IMG/VR virus record: IMGVR_UViG_2802429221_000013 | Direction: 5' to 3' (one strand) | Source: a virus | Lineage: Duplodnaviria; Heunggongvirae; Uroviricota; Caudoviricetes | DNA: 31,751 bases | Shown: positions 7,752 through 26,339 of the stretch, piece by piece | Position numbering within the stretch: the first letter of the stretch is position 1 | How the letters are laid out: each line of letters opens with the position of its first letter | The notes under the pieces: model-generated | What the model was told of the DNA's origin: nothing | Database searches by the model: none | What the model saw: the letters and a program-made list of their open reading frames with translations, nothing else | Position numbers and translations under genes: made by a program

Positions 7752-7791
7752 CATCAGTAATATCATCTAGATAATAATTGGGTATGAATGA

Positions 7792-8694
7792 ATGCGTGAG
7801 GCTGTTTCAATCGCTTGGTGGAATACGGGGATATCTCCTGCGGTTAAAAGAGAACGTTCTACTCCTGAAGAGTTGAAAGTAGCATTTGCTTTTATAGCAA
7901 ATATTTTGGTGAGTCATAATGTTGATATCCTATGTCTTGGAGAAATATCACCATCAGATATTAAGGTTTTAGAGGAAATGTTCTCAGAGGAAGGATTCAT
8001 AATATATGATGGGACTTTCACTGAAGGAAGCATAAAACATGATATGTGCATTCTTATAAAGCTAGCTACTTTCACTTACATTGATAGTAAAAGCATTGTT
8101 GAACAGTCACTGTTAGGAGCGGTAAGAGCCGGGCAAGAAGTTCAGCTCATGCATAATAACAGTGGGGATCATTTTTTTTTCTACATATCGCATTGGCCTA
8201 TGAGAGGTAATGATTCTAATGAAGAAATGCCAAAACGATATGAATTAGGAAAAGCTTTGCGAGGAGCAATCAGTAGATGTATAGAGGAAAAGTCAGGAAA
8301 GTATTTTATTCTTTTAGGTGATTACAATGACGATCCCTTTAATAAATCTCTTACACATGCTTTAGGTGCAACAAGGGATAGAGACTTAGTTGTCAAAAAA
8401 GATACTTTTTTATACAACCCTTTTTGGAATTTCATGGGGGCTTCAATTAGTTTTCCATCAGAAGATCATCATTTGAGTACCTACGGGACATATTATTACA
8501 GGGGCGGTGCTGTAACCCGTTGGCATACATTTGATCAAATTATTTTCTCCTCTTCATTCATTTCTGGTGGAGATTGGAATCTTTTGGAGGATGAGGTTAA
8601 AATCATTAACGATAAAGCCTTTAAAGAATTGGTGACAAGTCCCAAAACTAACTTTGATCATTTACCTGTTATCGCTGTAATTACGAGAGGTTAA
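7792..8694 (+). CDS. EEP-superfamily (endonuclease/exonuclease/phosphatase) protein; candidate defence effector
   Basis: 300-aa ORF, AT-rich. Motifs matching EEP catalytic signatures: WWN (N11), DILCLGE (E51), LLGDYNDDP (D177, N179), WHTFDQIIFS (D248), NFDHLPV (D289, H290). Sits in the A-to-cos slot where P2 has tin/old. Confidence 0.65.
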   Translation: MREAVSIAWWNTGISPAVKRERSTPEELKVAFAFIANILVSHNVDILCLGEISPSDIKVLEEMFSEEGFIIYDGTFTEGSIKHDMCILIKLATFTYIDSKSIVEQSLLGAVRAGQEVQLMHNNSGDHFFFYISHWPMRGNDSNEEMPKRYELGKALRGAISRCIEEKSGKYFILLGDYNDDPFNKSLTHALGATRDRDLVVKKDTFLYNPFWNFMGASISFPSEDHHLSTYGTYYYRGGAVTRWHTFDQIIFSSSFISGGDWNLLEDEVKIINDKAFKELVTSPKTNFDHLPVIAVITRG

Positions 8695-8698
8695 CAAA

Positions 8699-9151
8699 AT
8701 GGATTTCAAAAATTCATTAGCTGTGGGGATAGAGGCAGCAAAAAAAGCAAGATCAAATAAAGAAGAAATATTTAGTATTATCAGTGATTTAAGTGATAGT
8801 ATAAAGGAGTATAGTCAAGGGCGAGTGTTTTTGAAAATTACGAGTGAAAAAAAACTTGCATCTAATCAGACAGCGCTTACTGCCGTTGTGAGTTCGTTTA
8901 CAAACATCAACCCTTACATCGATTACGAAGCTCTATCGTTCGTAACTAAGAGAGAGCAAACAGAAGTTAAAGAGAACATTGCTGTTTGGAAGATAAATGA
9001 ATCAGATGGTTATCCATGTGTGATTTCTTATAACAAACGGGATGTTAGGTGCAAAGATAAAGAAACGTTAATCAAAGCGTTAAATGATCTAATGTCTGAT
9101 GCTAGCACCGGAGAAATTCTTTTAAGACTTATGAATACAGAGGAAGCATAA
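8699..9151 (+). CDS. Hypothetical protein, partner of the EEP protein
   Basis: 150-aa ORF starting 5 bp after the EEP stop, same AT-rich composition. No motif I recognise. Confidence 0.55.
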   Translation: MDFKNSLAVGIEAAKKARSNKEEIFSIISDLSDSIKEYSQGRVFLKITSEKKLASNQTALTAVVSSFTNINPYIDYEALSFVTKREQTEVKENIAVWKINESDGYPCVISYNKRDVRCKDKETLIKALNDLMSDASTGEILLRLMNTEEA

Positions 9152-21214: not shown

Positions 21215-23038
21215 ATGAGCACAAAATTTAAAACCGTTATCACTACTGCCGGAGCCGCAAAGCTGGCAGCGGCAACCGCACCGGGAGGGCGGAAGGTCAA
21301 CATTACCACGATGGCCGTCGGGGATGGCGGTGGTAAATTGCCTGTCCCGGATGCCGGACAGACCGGGCTTATCCACGAAGTCTGGCGACATGCGCTGAAC
21401 AAAATCAGTCAGGACAAACGAAACAGTAATTATATTATCGCAGAGCTGGTTATTCCGCCGGAGGTGGGCGGTTTCTGGATGCGTGAGCTTGGCCTGTACG
21501 ATGATGCGGGAACGTTAATTGCCGTGGCGAACATGGCCGAAAGTTATAAACCTGCCCTTGCCGAAGGCTCAGGGCGTTCGCAGACCTGCCGCATGGTCAT
21601 CATCGTCAGCAGTGTGGCCTCAGTGGAGCTGACCATTGACACCACAACGGTGATGGCGACGCAGGATTACGTTGATGACAAAATTGCAGAGCATGAACAG
21701 TCACGACGTCACCCGGACGCCTCGCTGACCGCAAAAGGTTTTACTCAGTTAAGCAGTGCGACCAACAGCACGTCTGAAACACTGGCCGCAACGCCGAAAG
21801 CAGTAAAGACCGCCTATGACCTTGCTAACGGGAAATATACTGCGCAGGATGCCACCACAGCGCGAAAAGGCCTTGTTCAACTCAGTAGCGCCATCAACAG
21901 CGATTCTGAAACGCTTGCGGCAACGCCAAAGGCGGTTAAGACAGCGTATGACCTTGCTAACGGGAAATACACTGCGCAGGACGCTACTACAGCGCGAAAA
22001 GGGCTTGTTCAGCTCAGTAATGACACCAACAGCGATTCTGAAACATTTGCCGCGACTCCGAAAGCGGTGAAAGCTGCCAATGATAATGCAAACAGACGCG
22101 TTCCTGACGGGCGTAAGGTCAATGGCAAACCACTGACCAATGATGTCAATGTTACATCGCAGGATATTTTTAACAGTCAGAGTATTGAGATTGGTGCAAA
22201 CCAGAATCTGGATAATTACAAAACGCCGGGACTGTACCATCAGCCACTGAATGCGAATACAAGCGCATCGCTGAAATACCCGGAGAATCTTGCAGGTACT
22301 CTGGTTGTGCTTAAAAATGCCGGAATAACACAAATTTACTATGTCTATAACACATCAAGAAGCTATACCCGCAGCCAGTATTCAACGGGGGGCTGGACAT
22401 CATGGACACCGCAGGATTCATTTCCGGTAGGTGCTCCAATCCCGTGGCCTTCTGATTCAGTACCTACAGGCTATGCCCTGATGCTGGGGCAGACTTTTGA
22501 TAAAGCAGCCTATCCCCTGCTTGCAGCAGCTTATCCGTCAGGGGTGATTCCAGATATGCGCGGCTGGACAATCAAGGGCAAACCCGCCAGTGGTCGCGCC
22601 GTATTATCACAGGAACAGGACGGCATTAAATCGCATACTCACAGCGCTAGTGCGTCAAATACGGATTTGGGAACGAAAACAACCAGTTCGTTTGATTACG
22701 GAACAAAAACGGTCAGCACATTTAACCATGGGACGAAATCTACTAATAGCACGGGGAATCATGCTCACTCATTTACAGTATTAAATGAAGAGCAGAAAGA
22801 CGGGCCAAACGCCGCGGGGGCGACGGGGAAATCAGTAGGAACAGTAACGACCTCCTCAGCCGGTAACCATGCCCATACTGTCGATATTGGTCAGCATAAC
22901 CACACCGTAGGTATTGGTGCCCATGCACATACTGTGGCATTGGGGGCGCACGGACACACCATCACGGTCAATGCTACGGGGAATTCAGAGAACACCGTAA
23001 AAAATATTGCATATAACTATATTGTGAGGCTTGCATAA
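21215..23038 (+). CDS. H: Tail fibre protein (P2 gpH-like)
   Basis: 607 aa. The N-terminal region resembles P2 gpH; the middle has three tandem repeats and the C-terminus has histidine-rich HxH repeats. Shorter than P2 gpH (about 669 aa). Confidence 0.85.
21737..22093 (+). repeat. In-frame tandem repeat inside H: 132-bp (44-aa) unit, about 2.7 copies
   Basis: The peptide unit [44 protein letters not shown] recurs; nucleotide copies differ by a few substitutions (e.g. cttgctaacgggaaatatactgcgcaggatgcc vs cttgctaacgggaaatacactgcgcaggacgct). Confidence 0.8.
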
Positions 23039-23616
23039 TGGCTTTCAGAATGAGTGCAGAAGCACAAACTATCCGCGTTTTCAATTTACTTAATGGAACC
23101 AATGAGTTTATTGGCGAAAGTGATGCATATATTCCGCCGTATACTGGCCTGCCTGCAAACAGTACAGATATTGCACCACCTGATATTCCTGCTGGTTATG
23201 CAGCCGTTTTCAATGCAGATGAAATGAAATGGGAACTGATGGAAGACCATCGCGGAAAGACTGTCTACGAAACGAAAACGGGAGCAGCCATTTATATTTC
23301 TGAACTTGGCGCATTACCTCCAGACGTGACAGCCATTTCCCCGGATGGGGATTATCAGAAATGGAACGGAAATGCGTGGGTGAATGATGAGAATGCAGAG
23401 CGTGATGCGCTTGTCAGAGCGGCTGACTCTCAGAAGAAAGAGCTGATTGCATATGCAGGTGAAATTATTGCCACGCTGCAGGATGCTGTCGATTTAGATA
23501 TGGCTACCGAGGAAGAAAAGTTAAGCCTGACACACTGGAAAAAATACCGTGTGCTACTGAATCGCGTTCAGCCGGAAAATGCTCCAGATATAGAATGGCC
23601 AGAAATGCCGCAATAA
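23038..23616 (+). CDS. G: Tail fibre assembly chaperone (P2 gpG-like)
   Basis: 192-aa ORF immediately after H with ATGA-type overlap; P2 gpG is about 175 aa. Confidence 0.75.
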
Positions 23617-23872
23617 ATCGTATTAGATCTGGTGTGAGATTACTCATCTATGGCACAGAGTAAAAACTAATCTGACAGTCCGCTCTGTGCTAGGAGCGGA
23701 CATTACCAAGTAACATGCCTTAATCAAAAGGAAATGGTTAATATATGCCATCATTGTTTGAAAAATACGCAGTCATATATTGCTATGAACATTGTTGGTG
23801 CATTAATTTGCTTAAGAAACTACAATTAAGCATCATAAAACACTCTTATGACTTTTAAGGCTCTACCGTATC

Positions 23873-24280
23873 ATGGCTAAGCGGATTCCTGGTGTTAGTA
23901 AAGAATGGTCTAACTATCTCCTTTGTTTATTATTACATATGTCTTTACCTCTCTTACCTTTGGGGTTCGAGACACTTGTGCGTTCCGATCACTTGCCATC
24001 AATACAAACATTAAATATTACAGCGGCGTTTTATGCGATCTCGATAGGGCTTTCTTCTAAGAACGTTGCTATGTTTGGTTTGGGTATATTCGTGAGCATT
24101 TGTTTCTCTGTTGTATTTGGGATTGTTTCTTCAAATCCTAATTCTGATCCTAATCTTAATTTTAATGATAACTTGTATTTTTATTCTCCAATTGCGTGTA
24201 TTGTTGCTATATTTGTTATACATGCATGTGAACGATATAACAGGCATGTTGCTGATTGTACACCATTTTTTGAGTTTTAA
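23873..24280 (+). CDS. Small polytopic membrane protein, cargo in the G-to-FI slot
   Basis: 135-aa ORF, very AT-rich. Three or four hydrophobic segments (LLCLLLHMSLPLLPLGF, AAFYAISIGL, MFGLGIFVSICFSVVFGIVS, IACIVAIFVIHAC). Weak ribosome-binding site, so the start is uncertain. Confidence 0.5.
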   Translation: MAKRIPGVSKEWSNYLLCLLLHMSLPLLPLGFETLVRSDHLPSIQTLNITAAFYAISIGLSSKNVAMFGLGIFVSICFSVVFGIVSSNPNSDPNLNFNDNLYFYSPIACIVAIFVIHACERYNRHVADCTPFFEF

Positions 24281-24289
24281 GGGGGTGCT

Positions 24290-24781
24290 ATGATTGATAC
24301 AATTATCCCAGTAATACTATCAATTCTCCCGGCAATACTATCTATATTTAGCTTAGTAGCTGTTTTTATAGGTGCATTAGTATCTATCAGGTCTGTTAAA
24401 AAAAGACGTGAAATAGAAGTTCAGCTTTTTAATGAGATAATAAATCAACAAATTAAACAAACTAAAAGCAACCGTAAAAAGGATCTTGAAAATAGTGTTA
24501 ATGAAATAGAAAATGAACTCAAGAGAAGAGTTGATATTTTGAATAAAATGCAAAAAGATCTAGAAGCAGTTTCAGAGAACAAATACTATTTTGATAAAGC
24601 AAAATATCTTCGAAATGTCAAGTATGGAGAGTATTTATTAGAGATAAATGAAGCTGTGAATAATATTGATAATAAAAACAAACACTTACTAAATAACGCT
24701 CTTAATCAAAGCTCTGAGATTGGAAAAGTAAGATATCTTGGAAGAATAACAAAGGAAGCACTGGAAAAAACAGTAGGCTGA
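24290..24781 (+). CDS. Membrane-anchored coiled-coil protein, cargo in the G-to-FI slot
   Basis: 163-aa ORF with a GGGGG ribosome-binding site, 9 bp after the upstream ORF. N-terminal transmembrane helix (IIPVILSILPAILSIFSLVAVFIGALVSI) followed by a highly charged K/E/N-rich helical region. AT-rich. Confidence 0.6.
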   Translation: MIDTIIPVILSILPAILSIFSLVAVFIGALVSIRSVKKRREIEVQLFNEIINQQIKQTKSNRKKDLENSVNEIENELKRRVDILNKMQKDLEAVSENKYYFDKAKYLRNVKYGEYLLEINEAVNNIDNKNKHLLNNALNQSSEIGKVRYLGRITKEALEKTVG

Positions 24782-25025
24782 TCATTTTTTCCGCTCGTAA
24801 TAGATAAACTCAAAGGTTCTTTTTGAGAGCCTTTGAGTTTCAATCTTACCAATATTACTCACCATTTCTTTAGCAGCAATTTGGGGACTATAACTTCTAC
24901 TTCTTGCTGTGAGTTCAACCGATGGATACAACACATTGGCTAAAACGCCCTGTGGGTGATTCATAGTCTAGCGTTTGGACTCCGTAAATTCACAGTTGGA
25001 AACTGAGCGAGTACAAATCAAGGCC

Positions 25026-25052
25026 GGCGGGCTGATTGCCCGCCTTTTCTTT
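25026..25052 (+). terminator. Rho-independent terminator between the cargo slot and FI
   Basis: GGCGGGC-TGATT-GCCCGCC hairpin followed by TTTTCTTT, about 100 bp upstream of the FI ATG. Confidence 0.6.
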
Positions 25053-25148
25053 ATCTGTTGTTTCATCCCCTGACCAGCCAGGTCAAATAGCGTCTCATGC
25101 ACTGCCCAACAGAAAATAGTTGCACCCATTAACCACGGAGTTAAACGG

Positions 25149-26339
25149 ATGAGTGACTATCATCACGGCGTGCAGGTGCTGGAGATTAACGACGGCACCC
25201 GCGTCATTTCCACCGTATCCACTGCCATTGTCGGCATGGTCTGCACGGCCAGCGATGCGGATGCGGAAACCTTCCCCCTCAATAAACCGGTGCTGATTAC
25301 CAATGTGCAGAGCGCAATTGCAAAGGCCGGTAAAAAAGGCACGCTGGCGGCATCGTTACAGGCCATCGCTGACCAGTCAAAACCGGTCACCGTTGTCGTG
25401 CGTGTGGAAGACGGAACCGGCGACGACGAAGAAACGAAACTCGCGCAGACCGTTTCCAATATCATCGGCACCACCGACGAAAACGGCCAGTACACCGGAC
25501 TGAAAGCCCTGCTGGCGGCGGAGTCGGTAACCGGTGTTAAACCGCGTATTCTCGGTGTGCCGGGGCTGGATACCAAAGAGGTGGCTGTTGCACTGGCATC
25601 AGTCTGTCAGAAGTTGCGCGCTTTCGGGTATATCAGCGCATGGGGCTGTAAAACCATTTCCGAGGTGAAAGCCTACCGCCAGAATTTCAGCCAGCGTGAG
25701 CTGATGGTCATCTGGCCGGATTTCCTCGCATGGGATACGGTCACCAGTACCACCGCCACCGCGTATGCCACCGCCCGTGCGCTGGGTCTGCGCGCTAAAA
25801 TCGACCAGGAGCAGGGCTGGCATAAAACGCTGTCCAATGTCGGGGTGAACGGTGTTACCGGCATCAGCGCCTCTGTATTCTGGGATTTGCAGGAGTCCGG
25901 CACCGATGCTGACCTGCTTAACGAGTCAGGCGTTACTACGCTGATTCGCCGCGACGGTTTCCGCTTCTGGGGTAACCGTACCTGCTCTGATGACCCGCTG
26001 TTCCTCTTTGAAAACTACACCCGCACCGCGCAGGTGCTGGCCGACACGATGGCTGAGGCGCACATGTGGGCGGTGGACAAGCCCATCACCGCAACGCTGA
26101 TTCGCGACATCGTTGACGGCATCAATGCCAAATTCCGTGAGCTGAAAACAAACGGCTATATCGTGGATGCGACCTGCTGGTTCAGCGAAGAATCCAACGA
26201 TGCGGAAACCCTCAAGGCCGGAAAACTGTATATCGACTACGACTATACCCCGGTGCCTCCTCTTGAAAACCTGACCCTGCGCCAGCGTATTACTGATAAA
26301 TACCTGGCAAATCTGGTCACCTCGGTTAACAGCAATTAA
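25149..26339 (+). CDS. FI: Tail sheath protein (P2 gpFI)
   Basis: 396 aa, the P2 gpFI length, in order. Confidence 0.9.
   Translation: MSDYHHGVQVLEINDGTRVISTVSTAIVGMVCTASDADAETFPLNKPVLITNVQSAIAKAGKKGTLAASLQAIADQSKPVTVVVRVEDGTGDDEETKLAQTVSNIIGTTDENGQYTGLKALLAAESVTGVKPRILGVPGLDTKEVAVALASVCQKLRAFGYISAWGCKTISEVKAYRQNFSQRELMVIWPDFLAWDTVTSTTATAYATARALGLRAKIDQEQGWHKTLSNVGVNGVTGISASVFWDLQESGTDADLLNESGVTTLIRRDGFRFWGNRTCSDDPLFLFENYTRTAQVLADTMAEAHMWAVDKPITATLIRDIVDGINAKFRELKTNGYIVDATCWFSEESNDAETLKAGKLYIDYDYTPVPPLENLTLRQRITDKYLANLVTSVNSN

Follow-up and report, generated by a model that had tools for sequence, protein, structure and literature searches.

The DNA analysed here (the window) is a 31,751-nucleotide stretch of a Caudoviricetes genome (IMGVR_UViG_2802429221_000013), and positions given without a locus label refer to it. 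The window genome is P2-like (Peduovirus). Between the tail-fibre assembly gene G and the tail sheath gene FI it carries an AT-rich cargo with two genes, A and B, whose products are predicted membrane proteins. Judged by its occurrence across many bacterial phyla, in prophages, integron cassettes and defence islands, the pair is a strong candidate for a new anti-phage system. The cargo and its neighbours are as follows.

Cargo proper, 23702–24968, + strand: about 1.27 kb with a GC content of about 0.33, comprising a leader, gene A, gene B and a 3′ hairpin (limits from BLAST boundaries and the GC profile)
Gene A, 23873–24280, + strand: 135-residue four-helix inner-membrane protein, N-in/C-in
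Gene B, 24290–24781, + strand: 163-residue protein, with a strong Shine-Dalgarno sequence (AAGGGGG) upstream
Gene G, 23038–23616: tail-fibre assembly gene (Caudo_TAP in Pfam, E = 1.7e-40), left neighbour of the cargo
Gene FI, 25149–26339: tail sheath gene (Phage_sheath_1 in Pfam, E = 1e-33), right neighbour of the cargo, with the tube gene FII next

The slot was assigned to the G/FI (Z/fun) position of P2 because its neighbours encode a Caudo_TAP tail-fibre assembly protein and a sheath protein. The GC content was 0.29–0.37 over 23600–25000 and 0.53–0.59 in the late genes on either side. The low GC content and the Pfam identities of G and FI thus bear out the initial annotation, which had placed an AT-rich insert in the Z/fun slot. 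It had given the insert an extent of 23617–25148. The insert is real, but its limits are slightly narrower, as homology to the P2-like backbone ends at about 23702 and restarts at 24969 in BLAST comparisons with Wphi, P2-EC67 and E. coli THO-015, which are P2-like phages or prophages with a different cargo at this slot. With such alternative cargos in Wphi, EC67 and THO-015, the low-GC, non-backbone insert running from G to FI has the make-up of a Z/fun cargo. The coordinates and lengths of the two open reading frames (ORFs), which lie on the same strand 9 nucleotides apart, agree exactly with the two-gene unit described earlier. The slot had also been called the second variable cargo position of P2-like phages, and the literature names the fun locus as a second defence-enriched hotspot (PMC9519451; bioRxiv 10.1101/2024.10.15.618418).

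Proteins A and B

Hydropathy and the AlphaFold model (pLDDT 90, pTM 0.81) showed that protein A is polytopic, as first proposed, with four helices at residues 10–36, 44–61, 65–87 and 99–127. Across 44 homologues, lysine and arginine are enriched at the N-terminus, in the turn at residues 61–65 and in the C-terminal tail, and they are depleted in the other two loops. This distribution indicates an N-in/C-in topology. In A, residues H22, P26, L27, P29, E33, Y54, I58, S62 and G83 are invariant, as is a block on the cytoplasmic face, H117-x-x-E120-R121-Y122-N123-[RK]-H125. By this topology, the conserved polar cluster of A (H22, S61/S62 and HxxERYN[RK]H) is mostly placed on the cytoplasmic face.

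A word-indexed search found 58 homologues of A. When 1.84 billion representatives were searched exhaustively with a profile, 667 cluster representatives were found at E ≤ 1e-3, of which 461 had E ≤ 1e-10. The best 150 of the 667 were all small stand-alone proteins of 97–223 residues. One identical copy is found in the cultured phage Peduovirus P24A7b, in which tblastn detected the full 135-residue ORF (L002 16191–16595; 100% identical to A of the window). The GenBank record of P24A7b annotates A as a 69-residue C-terminal fragment only (L002 16389–16598).

Protein B has a single N-terminal hydrophobic helix, and the tail after it is all-helical, with 27 lysine and arginine and 21 aspartate and glutamate residues. 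In 24 of 24 homologues there was no lysine or arginine before the transmembrane helix and there were two to eight in the 15 residues after it. These positions indicate an N-out/C-in orientation, with the remainder of B in the cytoplasm. The C-terminus carries the motif L-x-Q-x-S-x-x-G-[RK]-x-x-Y-x-x-[KR]-[IL]. Distant homologues of B are shorter, mostly 111–140 residues, and the only features they have in common are the anchor helix and this motif. The long charged helix of the window B is an insert specific to Enterobacterales and is not found throughout the family. The initial annotation had described one N-terminal transmembrane helix and a long, charged, coiled-coil-like tail. The helix and the charged helical tail were upheld. 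The coiled coil is putative, as the AlphaFold model of B is all-helical but of low confidence (pLDDT 59, pTM 0.24), and the helical insert is confined to Enterobacterales.

Neither protein had been recognised from the sequence, and the remote homology searches agreed. A and B had no significant match in Pfam, NCBIfam, PDB sequence profiles or PADLOC v2.0.0, which dates from 2023 and does not cover systems described later (best PADLOC match of B, E = 0.17). Protein A matched only phrog_22626 in PHROGs (E = 4e-68), a family of unknown function, and had no fold match in BFVD at E ≤ 0.001. The matches of B in PHROGs were weak, non-significant and to holin-like families. Literature searches by protein accession found no mention of the proteins.

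Some B-family proteins retain the anchor and the motif and gain C-terminal modules, which are pentapeptide repeats (E = 8e-60), a DUF1822 segment (E = 1e-14), or W/G-rich repeats with two more transmembrane helices. In a metagenome-assembled genome (MAG) of Saprospiraceae, the place of a canonical B after the A homologue is taken by a membrane protein whose N-terminal part is an EAD11 domain (PF19964, E = 2e-17, 63 bits against a cut-off of 26). This was the sole locus with an effector-associated domain (EAD). The modified partners are located as follows.

B-family proteins with added modules: L102 455–1807; L094 4420–5196; L074 1494–2432
EAD11 partner that is not of the B family (Saprospiraceae): L020 6492–7232

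Linkage, distribution and neighbours of the pair

In 44 of 46 genome, viral or assembly loci, the ORF that directly follows A on the same strand belongs to the B family. This arrangement was also seen in 43 of the 53 metagenome loci with enough downstream sequence. The two genes often overlap, with the start of B over the stop codon of A. Part of the 46-locus set served to build the B profile; yet independent loci (e.g., L033, L040, L041 and L053) have scores of 1e-15 to 1e-23 on it as well. The A loci come from Gammaproteobacteria, Gallionellaceae, Gemmatimonadota, Dehalococcoidia, Verrucomicrobiota, Planctomycetota, Bacteroidota, Cyanobacteria and Stahlbacteria. Comparison of the window copy with the E. 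coli island variant and the Morganella copy gave a dN/dS of 0.14 for A and 0.25–0.39 for B. The dN/dS values and the widespread adjacency indicate that A and B are real, constrained genes. They are evidently under purifying selection and presumably act together, with B as the faster-evolving partner. The pair thus has the appearance of an ancient, tightly linked and co-translated module.

The initial annotation had made its proposal depend on conservation of the two ORFs as a pair at this slot in related prophages. The pair is kept across phyla, but at the G/FI slot it is rare. The flanks were matched in 990 of 5426 complete E. coli genomes and the cargo was present in just two of the 5426; among 50,697 phage records, P24A7b was the only carrier. 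P24A7b, E. coli AR_0081 and E. ruysiae carry the entire unit at 97% identity, and it is also present in one IMG/VR contig. No A homologue was found among 72,556 plasmid records.

The pair occurs as a moron in three unrelated prophage types, namely P2-like, Morganella lambdoid and Acinetobacter prophages. In the Morganella lambdoid prophage it lies in the nin region, with Dam on one side and DUF1367, Rus-like and Q genes on the other. In the Acinetobacter prophages it lies between a Mu-F-like head gene and morons of the Ant/KilAC type, with YdaS and Phd-like antitoxin genes nearby.

Homologues were also found in integrons. In Luteimonas the pair forms a single cassette between two of at least 27 attC-like repeats, 896 nucleotides apart. 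The V. cholerae and V. anguillarum copies are on contigs of about 1.2 kb, where the pair is bounded by VCR-type repeats 1022 and 1020 nucleotides apart, respectively. ORFs between attC sites, as in an integron cassette, are thus found in these homologues and not in the window copy. The array of Luteimonas sp. MC1572 (L033 1–16405; CP067112 46913–63317) is dense, with its at least 27 repeats within 16 kb. Nearly all of its cassettes encode small proteins without a Pfam family, and one cassette of 413 nucleotides recurs several times. Integron cassettes have been reported as stores of many small anti-phage systems (bioRxiv 10.1101/2024.07.02.601686). Other copies form small chromosomal islets amid housekeeping genes in Pseudoalteromonas, Photobacterium and others. 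From these contexts, the island appears to be a self-contained, horizontally mobile two-gene operon.

Several copies outside the P2 slot have defence-related neighbours. The E. coli island variant (92% and 83% amino acid identity for A and B) lies directly upstream of KAP-NTPase, QatB, QueC-like and TatD genes, which we take to be the Qat system of Gao et al. 2020, followed by a SLATT + SMODS pair. In other strains this variant is near NERD-UvrD, T5orf172 and PLD-helicase genes. Its island is variable and lies at the edge of a type VI secretion system (T6SS) cluster, adjoining a TsiV immunity gene. This T6SS-end island (vasL side; L047 7738–14471, L048 1–3059) holds Qat-like, SLATT + SMODS, NERD-UvrD or T5orf172 genes depending on the strain, and it seems to be a hotspot for defence genes on the chromosome. 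A Stahlbacteria MAG has a type III restriction-modification (R-M) system (N6_N4 methylase and ResIII) directly upstream of the pair on the same strand. A TIR/SEFIR protein is encoded 1 kb upstream of the pair in a Gemmatimonadales MAG, and an Imm26 immunity protein follows the Shewanella copy.

Possible function of the pair

The reading that we tentatively place first, with a confidence somewhat below even, is that the prophage carries the pair as a small inner-membrane phage-exclusion complex of the abortive-infection type. A and B would form a stoichiometric complex in the inner membrane. B would be a membrane-tethered sensor or adaptor that detects a cytoplasmic infection cue and would then activate A, the constant effector. 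A would harm the integrity or energisation of the membrane, either as a channel formed by oligomerisation or through an enzyme activity at the inner leaflet; its invariant His/Glu/Arg/Tyr/Asn cluster speaks for the enzyme as much as for the channel. The superinfecting phage would be stopped and the infected cell lost.

The division into effector and sensor or adaptor is suggested because A is constant, whereas B evolves faster and has a variable C-terminus; the EAD11 partner and the pentapeptide and DUF1822 add-ons support the same logic. Effector-associated domains are proposed adaptors that join effectors to the core of conflict systems (PMC7159879). The location also speaks for abortive infection, as defence genes of P2-like phages are documented to concentrate in the fun slot (PMC9519451). 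The movement of the pair as a unit on P2-like, Morganella and Acinetobacter prophages and in integron cassettes supports a role in defence, and the purifying selection and the cytoplasmic placement of both conserved motifs are in favour of the abortive-infection complex. Superinfection exclusion or abortive infection had been named as plausible from the window alone. This idea is now better supported circumstantially, because of the pairing across phyla, the integron and three prophage carriers, and the Qat/CBASS-like, type III R-M and TIR neighbours.

Several points weigh against the abortive-infection complex. The pair has no homology to any validated system, and its function would be read from genomic association. 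The channel step is the weakest part of the proposal, since the invariant H/E/R/Y/N/H cluster of A resembles the lining of a pore less than it does a catalytic site or a site that binds a metal or ligand. The B of the window has no add-on sensor domain and no EAD in Pfam, and its low-confidence model is unfit for a fold search or a coiled-coil call. A strict sigma-70 scan found no promoter site upstream of A, where weak candidates only were seen by eye. Many chromosomal copies have housekeeping neighbours and no defence neighbour. In addition, the pair may already carry a name, since systems named in 2024–2026 were not compared by sequence.

Superinfection exclusion is the nearest rival. T4 Imm/Sp, P22 SieA and HK97 gp15 are small inner-membrane proteins of phages that shield the lysogen or the infected cell from other phages. 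By analogy with them, A–B would block the entry of the incoming genome at the inner membrane without killing the cell. The small size, the inner-membrane location and the prophage moron slot all agree with such a role, and fun, the gene of P2 at this slot, is an exclusion gene (PMC9519451; bioRxiv 10.1101/2024.10.15.618418). However, injection blockers are usually partner-specific and narrow, and those named above are single proteins with narrow ranges, whereas A–B is an obligate pair across phyla, with residues invariant from Proteobacteria to Dehalococcoidia, Planctomycetota and Cyanobacteria. Both conserved motifs are cytoplasmic and not periplasmic, where ejection proteins arrive, and the EAD11, pentapeptide and DUF1822 partners indicate cytoplasmic signalling. 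We consider this rival unlikely.

In a membrane toxin–antitoxin or addiction module, one protein would be a toxin that damages the membrane and the other would restrain it, and the chief task of the pair would be to stabilise the cassette, prophage or island and not to stop phages. The compact, translationally coupled two-gene layout fits, as does the occurrence in sedentary integron arrays, where toxin–antitoxin cassettes are common; a TATAAT box lies just upstream in the Vibrio cassette, and the antitoxin genes near the Acinetobacter copies (YdaS and Phd-like) point the same way. On the other side, there is no likeness to a known toxin–antitoxin family, strongly conserved motifs occur in both partners, each of them a membrane protein, and the add-ons of B are variable and sensor-like. 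Addiction is thus distinctly unlikely in our judgement, although toxin–antitoxin function and abortive infection are not mutually exclusive.

Four-transmembrane colicin immunity proteins are similar to A in size and topology. The pair may thus be conceived as an orphan immunity pair against membrane-targeting toxins such as pore-forming bacteriocins or T6SS effectors, and the TsiV gene beside the E. coli variant and the Imm26 gene after the Shewanella copy suit this idea. However, none of the loci examined had a toxin gene linked to the pair, an immunity protein is normally encoded by one gene on its own, and the prophage morons and the R-M and Qat neighbours suit phage defence better. An immunity role is improbable on this evidence.

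Lysogenic conversion would make the pair a membrane enzyme or transport pair that changes the envelope or physiology of the lysogen and is unrelated to phage conflict. The catalytic or metal-binding look of the invariant His/Glu/Arg/Tyr/Asn cluster at the membrane–cytoplasm interface would be explained, the P2-EC67 gene at the slot is annotated as a putative lysogenic conversion protein, and the housekeeping neighbours of many chromosomal copies would be expected. But neither sequence nor fold comparisons turned up a related enzyme family, and accessory conflict genes are typically as extremely mobile, patchily distributed and rare as this pair, so that we hold conversion to be very improbable. 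A holin/antiholin-like lysis-timing pair, which the small multi-transmembrane protein with a single-transmembrane partner and the holin-like PHROG matches of B might suggest, is hardly credible, as the pair is never in a lysis cassette, the P2-like, Morganella and Acinetobacter prophages have separate holin/endolysin genes (about 8 kb upstream of the island in P24A7b, and a holin 4 kb from the Morganella copy), and the pair also occurs in integrons and chromosomal islets without phage.

The abortive-infection complex has a number of parallels among known systems. Lambda RexAB is likewise a two-gene exclusion system on a prophage, with a proposed four-transmembrane effector of about 140 residues and a proposed cytoplasmic sensor. 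It differs in that RexA is soluble and has about 280 residues, whereas B is half this size and membrane-anchored, and in that the membrane protein comes first in the A–B pair. Homology to RexAB was rejected: hhalign gave a probability of 0.5% over 18 columns for A against RexB and of 0.2% for B against RexA, and there was no RexA or RexB match in Pfam (for A, no match of any kind at E < 1). Sucellos, a RexAB-like system of V. cholerae, is also a two-gene integron cassette, and it has its own promoter. The Vibrio copies of the A–B pair are rare variants on contigs of about 1.2 kb, and their rarity suggests that they differ from the N16961 cassette.

Rst_2TM_1TM_TIR of the P2-like phage AC1 is a cargo-hotspot system in which multi-transmembrane and single-transmembrane proteins are the presumed membrane effectors (Rousset et al. 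2022; PMC9122126). It depends on a TIR signalling enzyme and occupies the A-Q hotspot, whereas the A–B pair has no third gene; neither A nor B matched the PADLOC v2 models, which include those of Rst. P2 Z/fun and the PD systems (Vassallo et al. 2022) share the G–FI slot and the exchangeable, AT-rich cargo that is expressed apart from the late operons. Their proteins are unrelated to A and B, and there was no PADLOC match to the PD-T4, PD-T7 and PD-lambda models. The EAD-coupled conflict effectors (Kaur, Burroughs, Iyer, Aravind 2020) resemble the pair in that one Bacteroidota A is paired with an EAD11 membrane protein. This likeness comes from one lineage only; the B of the window is without an EAD, and no NTPase core component is linked. 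A stator of the MotAB/ExbBD/ZorAB type was rejected, as A is without a cytoplasmic domain, the C-terminal domain of B is cytoplasmic, and the sole NCBIfam match to ZorA had an E-value of 0.37.

As far as our searches show, the protein families, the obligate pairing, the breadth and the mobility on multiple vehicles are new, whereas the slot and the idea of prophage membrane exclusion are already known. A wider proposal, possible but doubtful, is that the pair founds a phylum-spanning minimal membrane immune module. A would be an effector with a new HxxERYN[RK]H active site, maybe a membrane enzyme and not a simple pore. Its tethered partner would carry swappable C-terminal sensors or adaptors (pentapeptide, DUF1822 and EAD11), and the module would be small enough to move as an integron cassette and, between phages and chromosomes, as a cassette bounded by inverted repeats.

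If the pair is anti-phage, it would be among the smallest multi-gene systems (about 0.9 kb of coding sequence), made of membrane proteins only and without a known domain, and it would range from E. coli to Dehalococcoidia and Cyanobacteria. It would join three reservoirs of defence genes, namely P2 hotspots, integron arrays and chromosomal defence islands, through one cargo. P24A7b, as a cultured phage that carries the pair, would provide a tractable E. coli model, and the module would offer a way to study the coupling of membrane effectors to sensors that can be exchanged.

Non-coding elements and flanking features

The other features around the two genes are as follows.

Tail-fibre gene H, 21215–23038: upstream of G
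Left junction, 23593–23705, no strand assigned: 3′ end of G, then the hairpin-rich GTCCGCTC-N8-GAGCGGAC
Leader, 23706–23872, + strand: AT-rich, putative carrier of the promoter
Post-B hairpin, 24797–24849, + strand: long and AT-rich, without a T-run (inverted repeat I3; dG −23.9 kcal/mol, z −5.8)
Intrinsic terminator, 25026–25054, + strand: 7-bp GC stem and T-run, ahead of the FI leader
Inverted-repeat sites: window 23646–23704; L043 1527–1571 and 2720–2748; L044 42–104 and 1277–1287; L046 6395–6432 and 7616–7627; L029 about 7765–7845

The left junction is the point at which BLAST alignments to Wphi, P2-EC67 and THO-015 halt (about 23700–23704). Its fold has a dG of −19.6 and a z of −3.3, and it corresponds to the "left inverted repeat" of the annotated P2-EC67 Z-region (AJ512685). 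In the E. coli chromosomal island the element likewise precedes the pair, as does a diverged copy in the Morganella lambdoid prophage.

This left repeat is one of two imperfect inverted repeats of about 40 nucleotides, annotated in AJ512685, with the core AATCTGACAGTCYGCTYTGWGC.AGRAGCRGA, which is itself a hairpin. The repeats bracket various Z/fun cargos in P2-like phages. Both flank the A–B pair in the E. coli chromosomal island, where no P2 genes are nearby, and the left one is recognisable upstream of the pair in the Morganella lambdoid prophage. In the window the left copy is present (23646–23704); the right core is missing and its outer flank remains. The repeats look like a cassette boundary or recombination site that moves with the cargo, and they may help to account for the exchange of Z/fun cargo.

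The sequence of about 230 nucleotides upstream of A (window 23640–23890) has 88% mean column identity among the P2-like, Morganella lambdoid and E. coli island copies. Its conservation in three contexts indicates that the leader travels with the genes. Rfam detected no RNA element within the cargo. A sub-threshold Rfam match to IS009 in the 3′ part of G (23403–23579, + strand; 42 bits against a gathering score of 117, E = 8e-8) probably reflects kinship among tail-fibre assembly genes and not an RNA gene.

Downstream of the pair, hairpins and a terminator were indeed present, but the canonical GC-stem terminator (25026–25044), which had been thought to insulate the unit from the FI late operon, falls in sequence common to Wphi, EC67 and THO-015 in BLAST and is thus conserved P2 backbone, not cargo. 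The post-B hairpin is kept in the E. coli island copies and not in Morganella. A reverse ORF over this hairpin (24782–24964, − strand, 60 residues) is probably not a gene, as the homologous segment of the E. coli island has 2-nucleotide indels; its counterpart in P24A7b is annotated as a hypothetical protein (L002 17100–17282).

The other cargo slot of P2 (A-Q; window 7792–9151) also has a low GC content, 0.36. It encodes a 300-residue protein of the endonuclease/exonuclease/phosphatase family (PF19580, E = 1e-16) and a 150-residue protein without a family, and neither had a PADLOC v2 match. The H protein of the window has 607 residues, with two to three tandem repeats of about 43 residues and a His-rich C-terminus, whereas H has 874 residues in the closest relatives with the same cargo (L001 795–3419 and L003 2542–5166). 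The tail fibre was exchanged between the window and these relatives while G and the cargo were retained.

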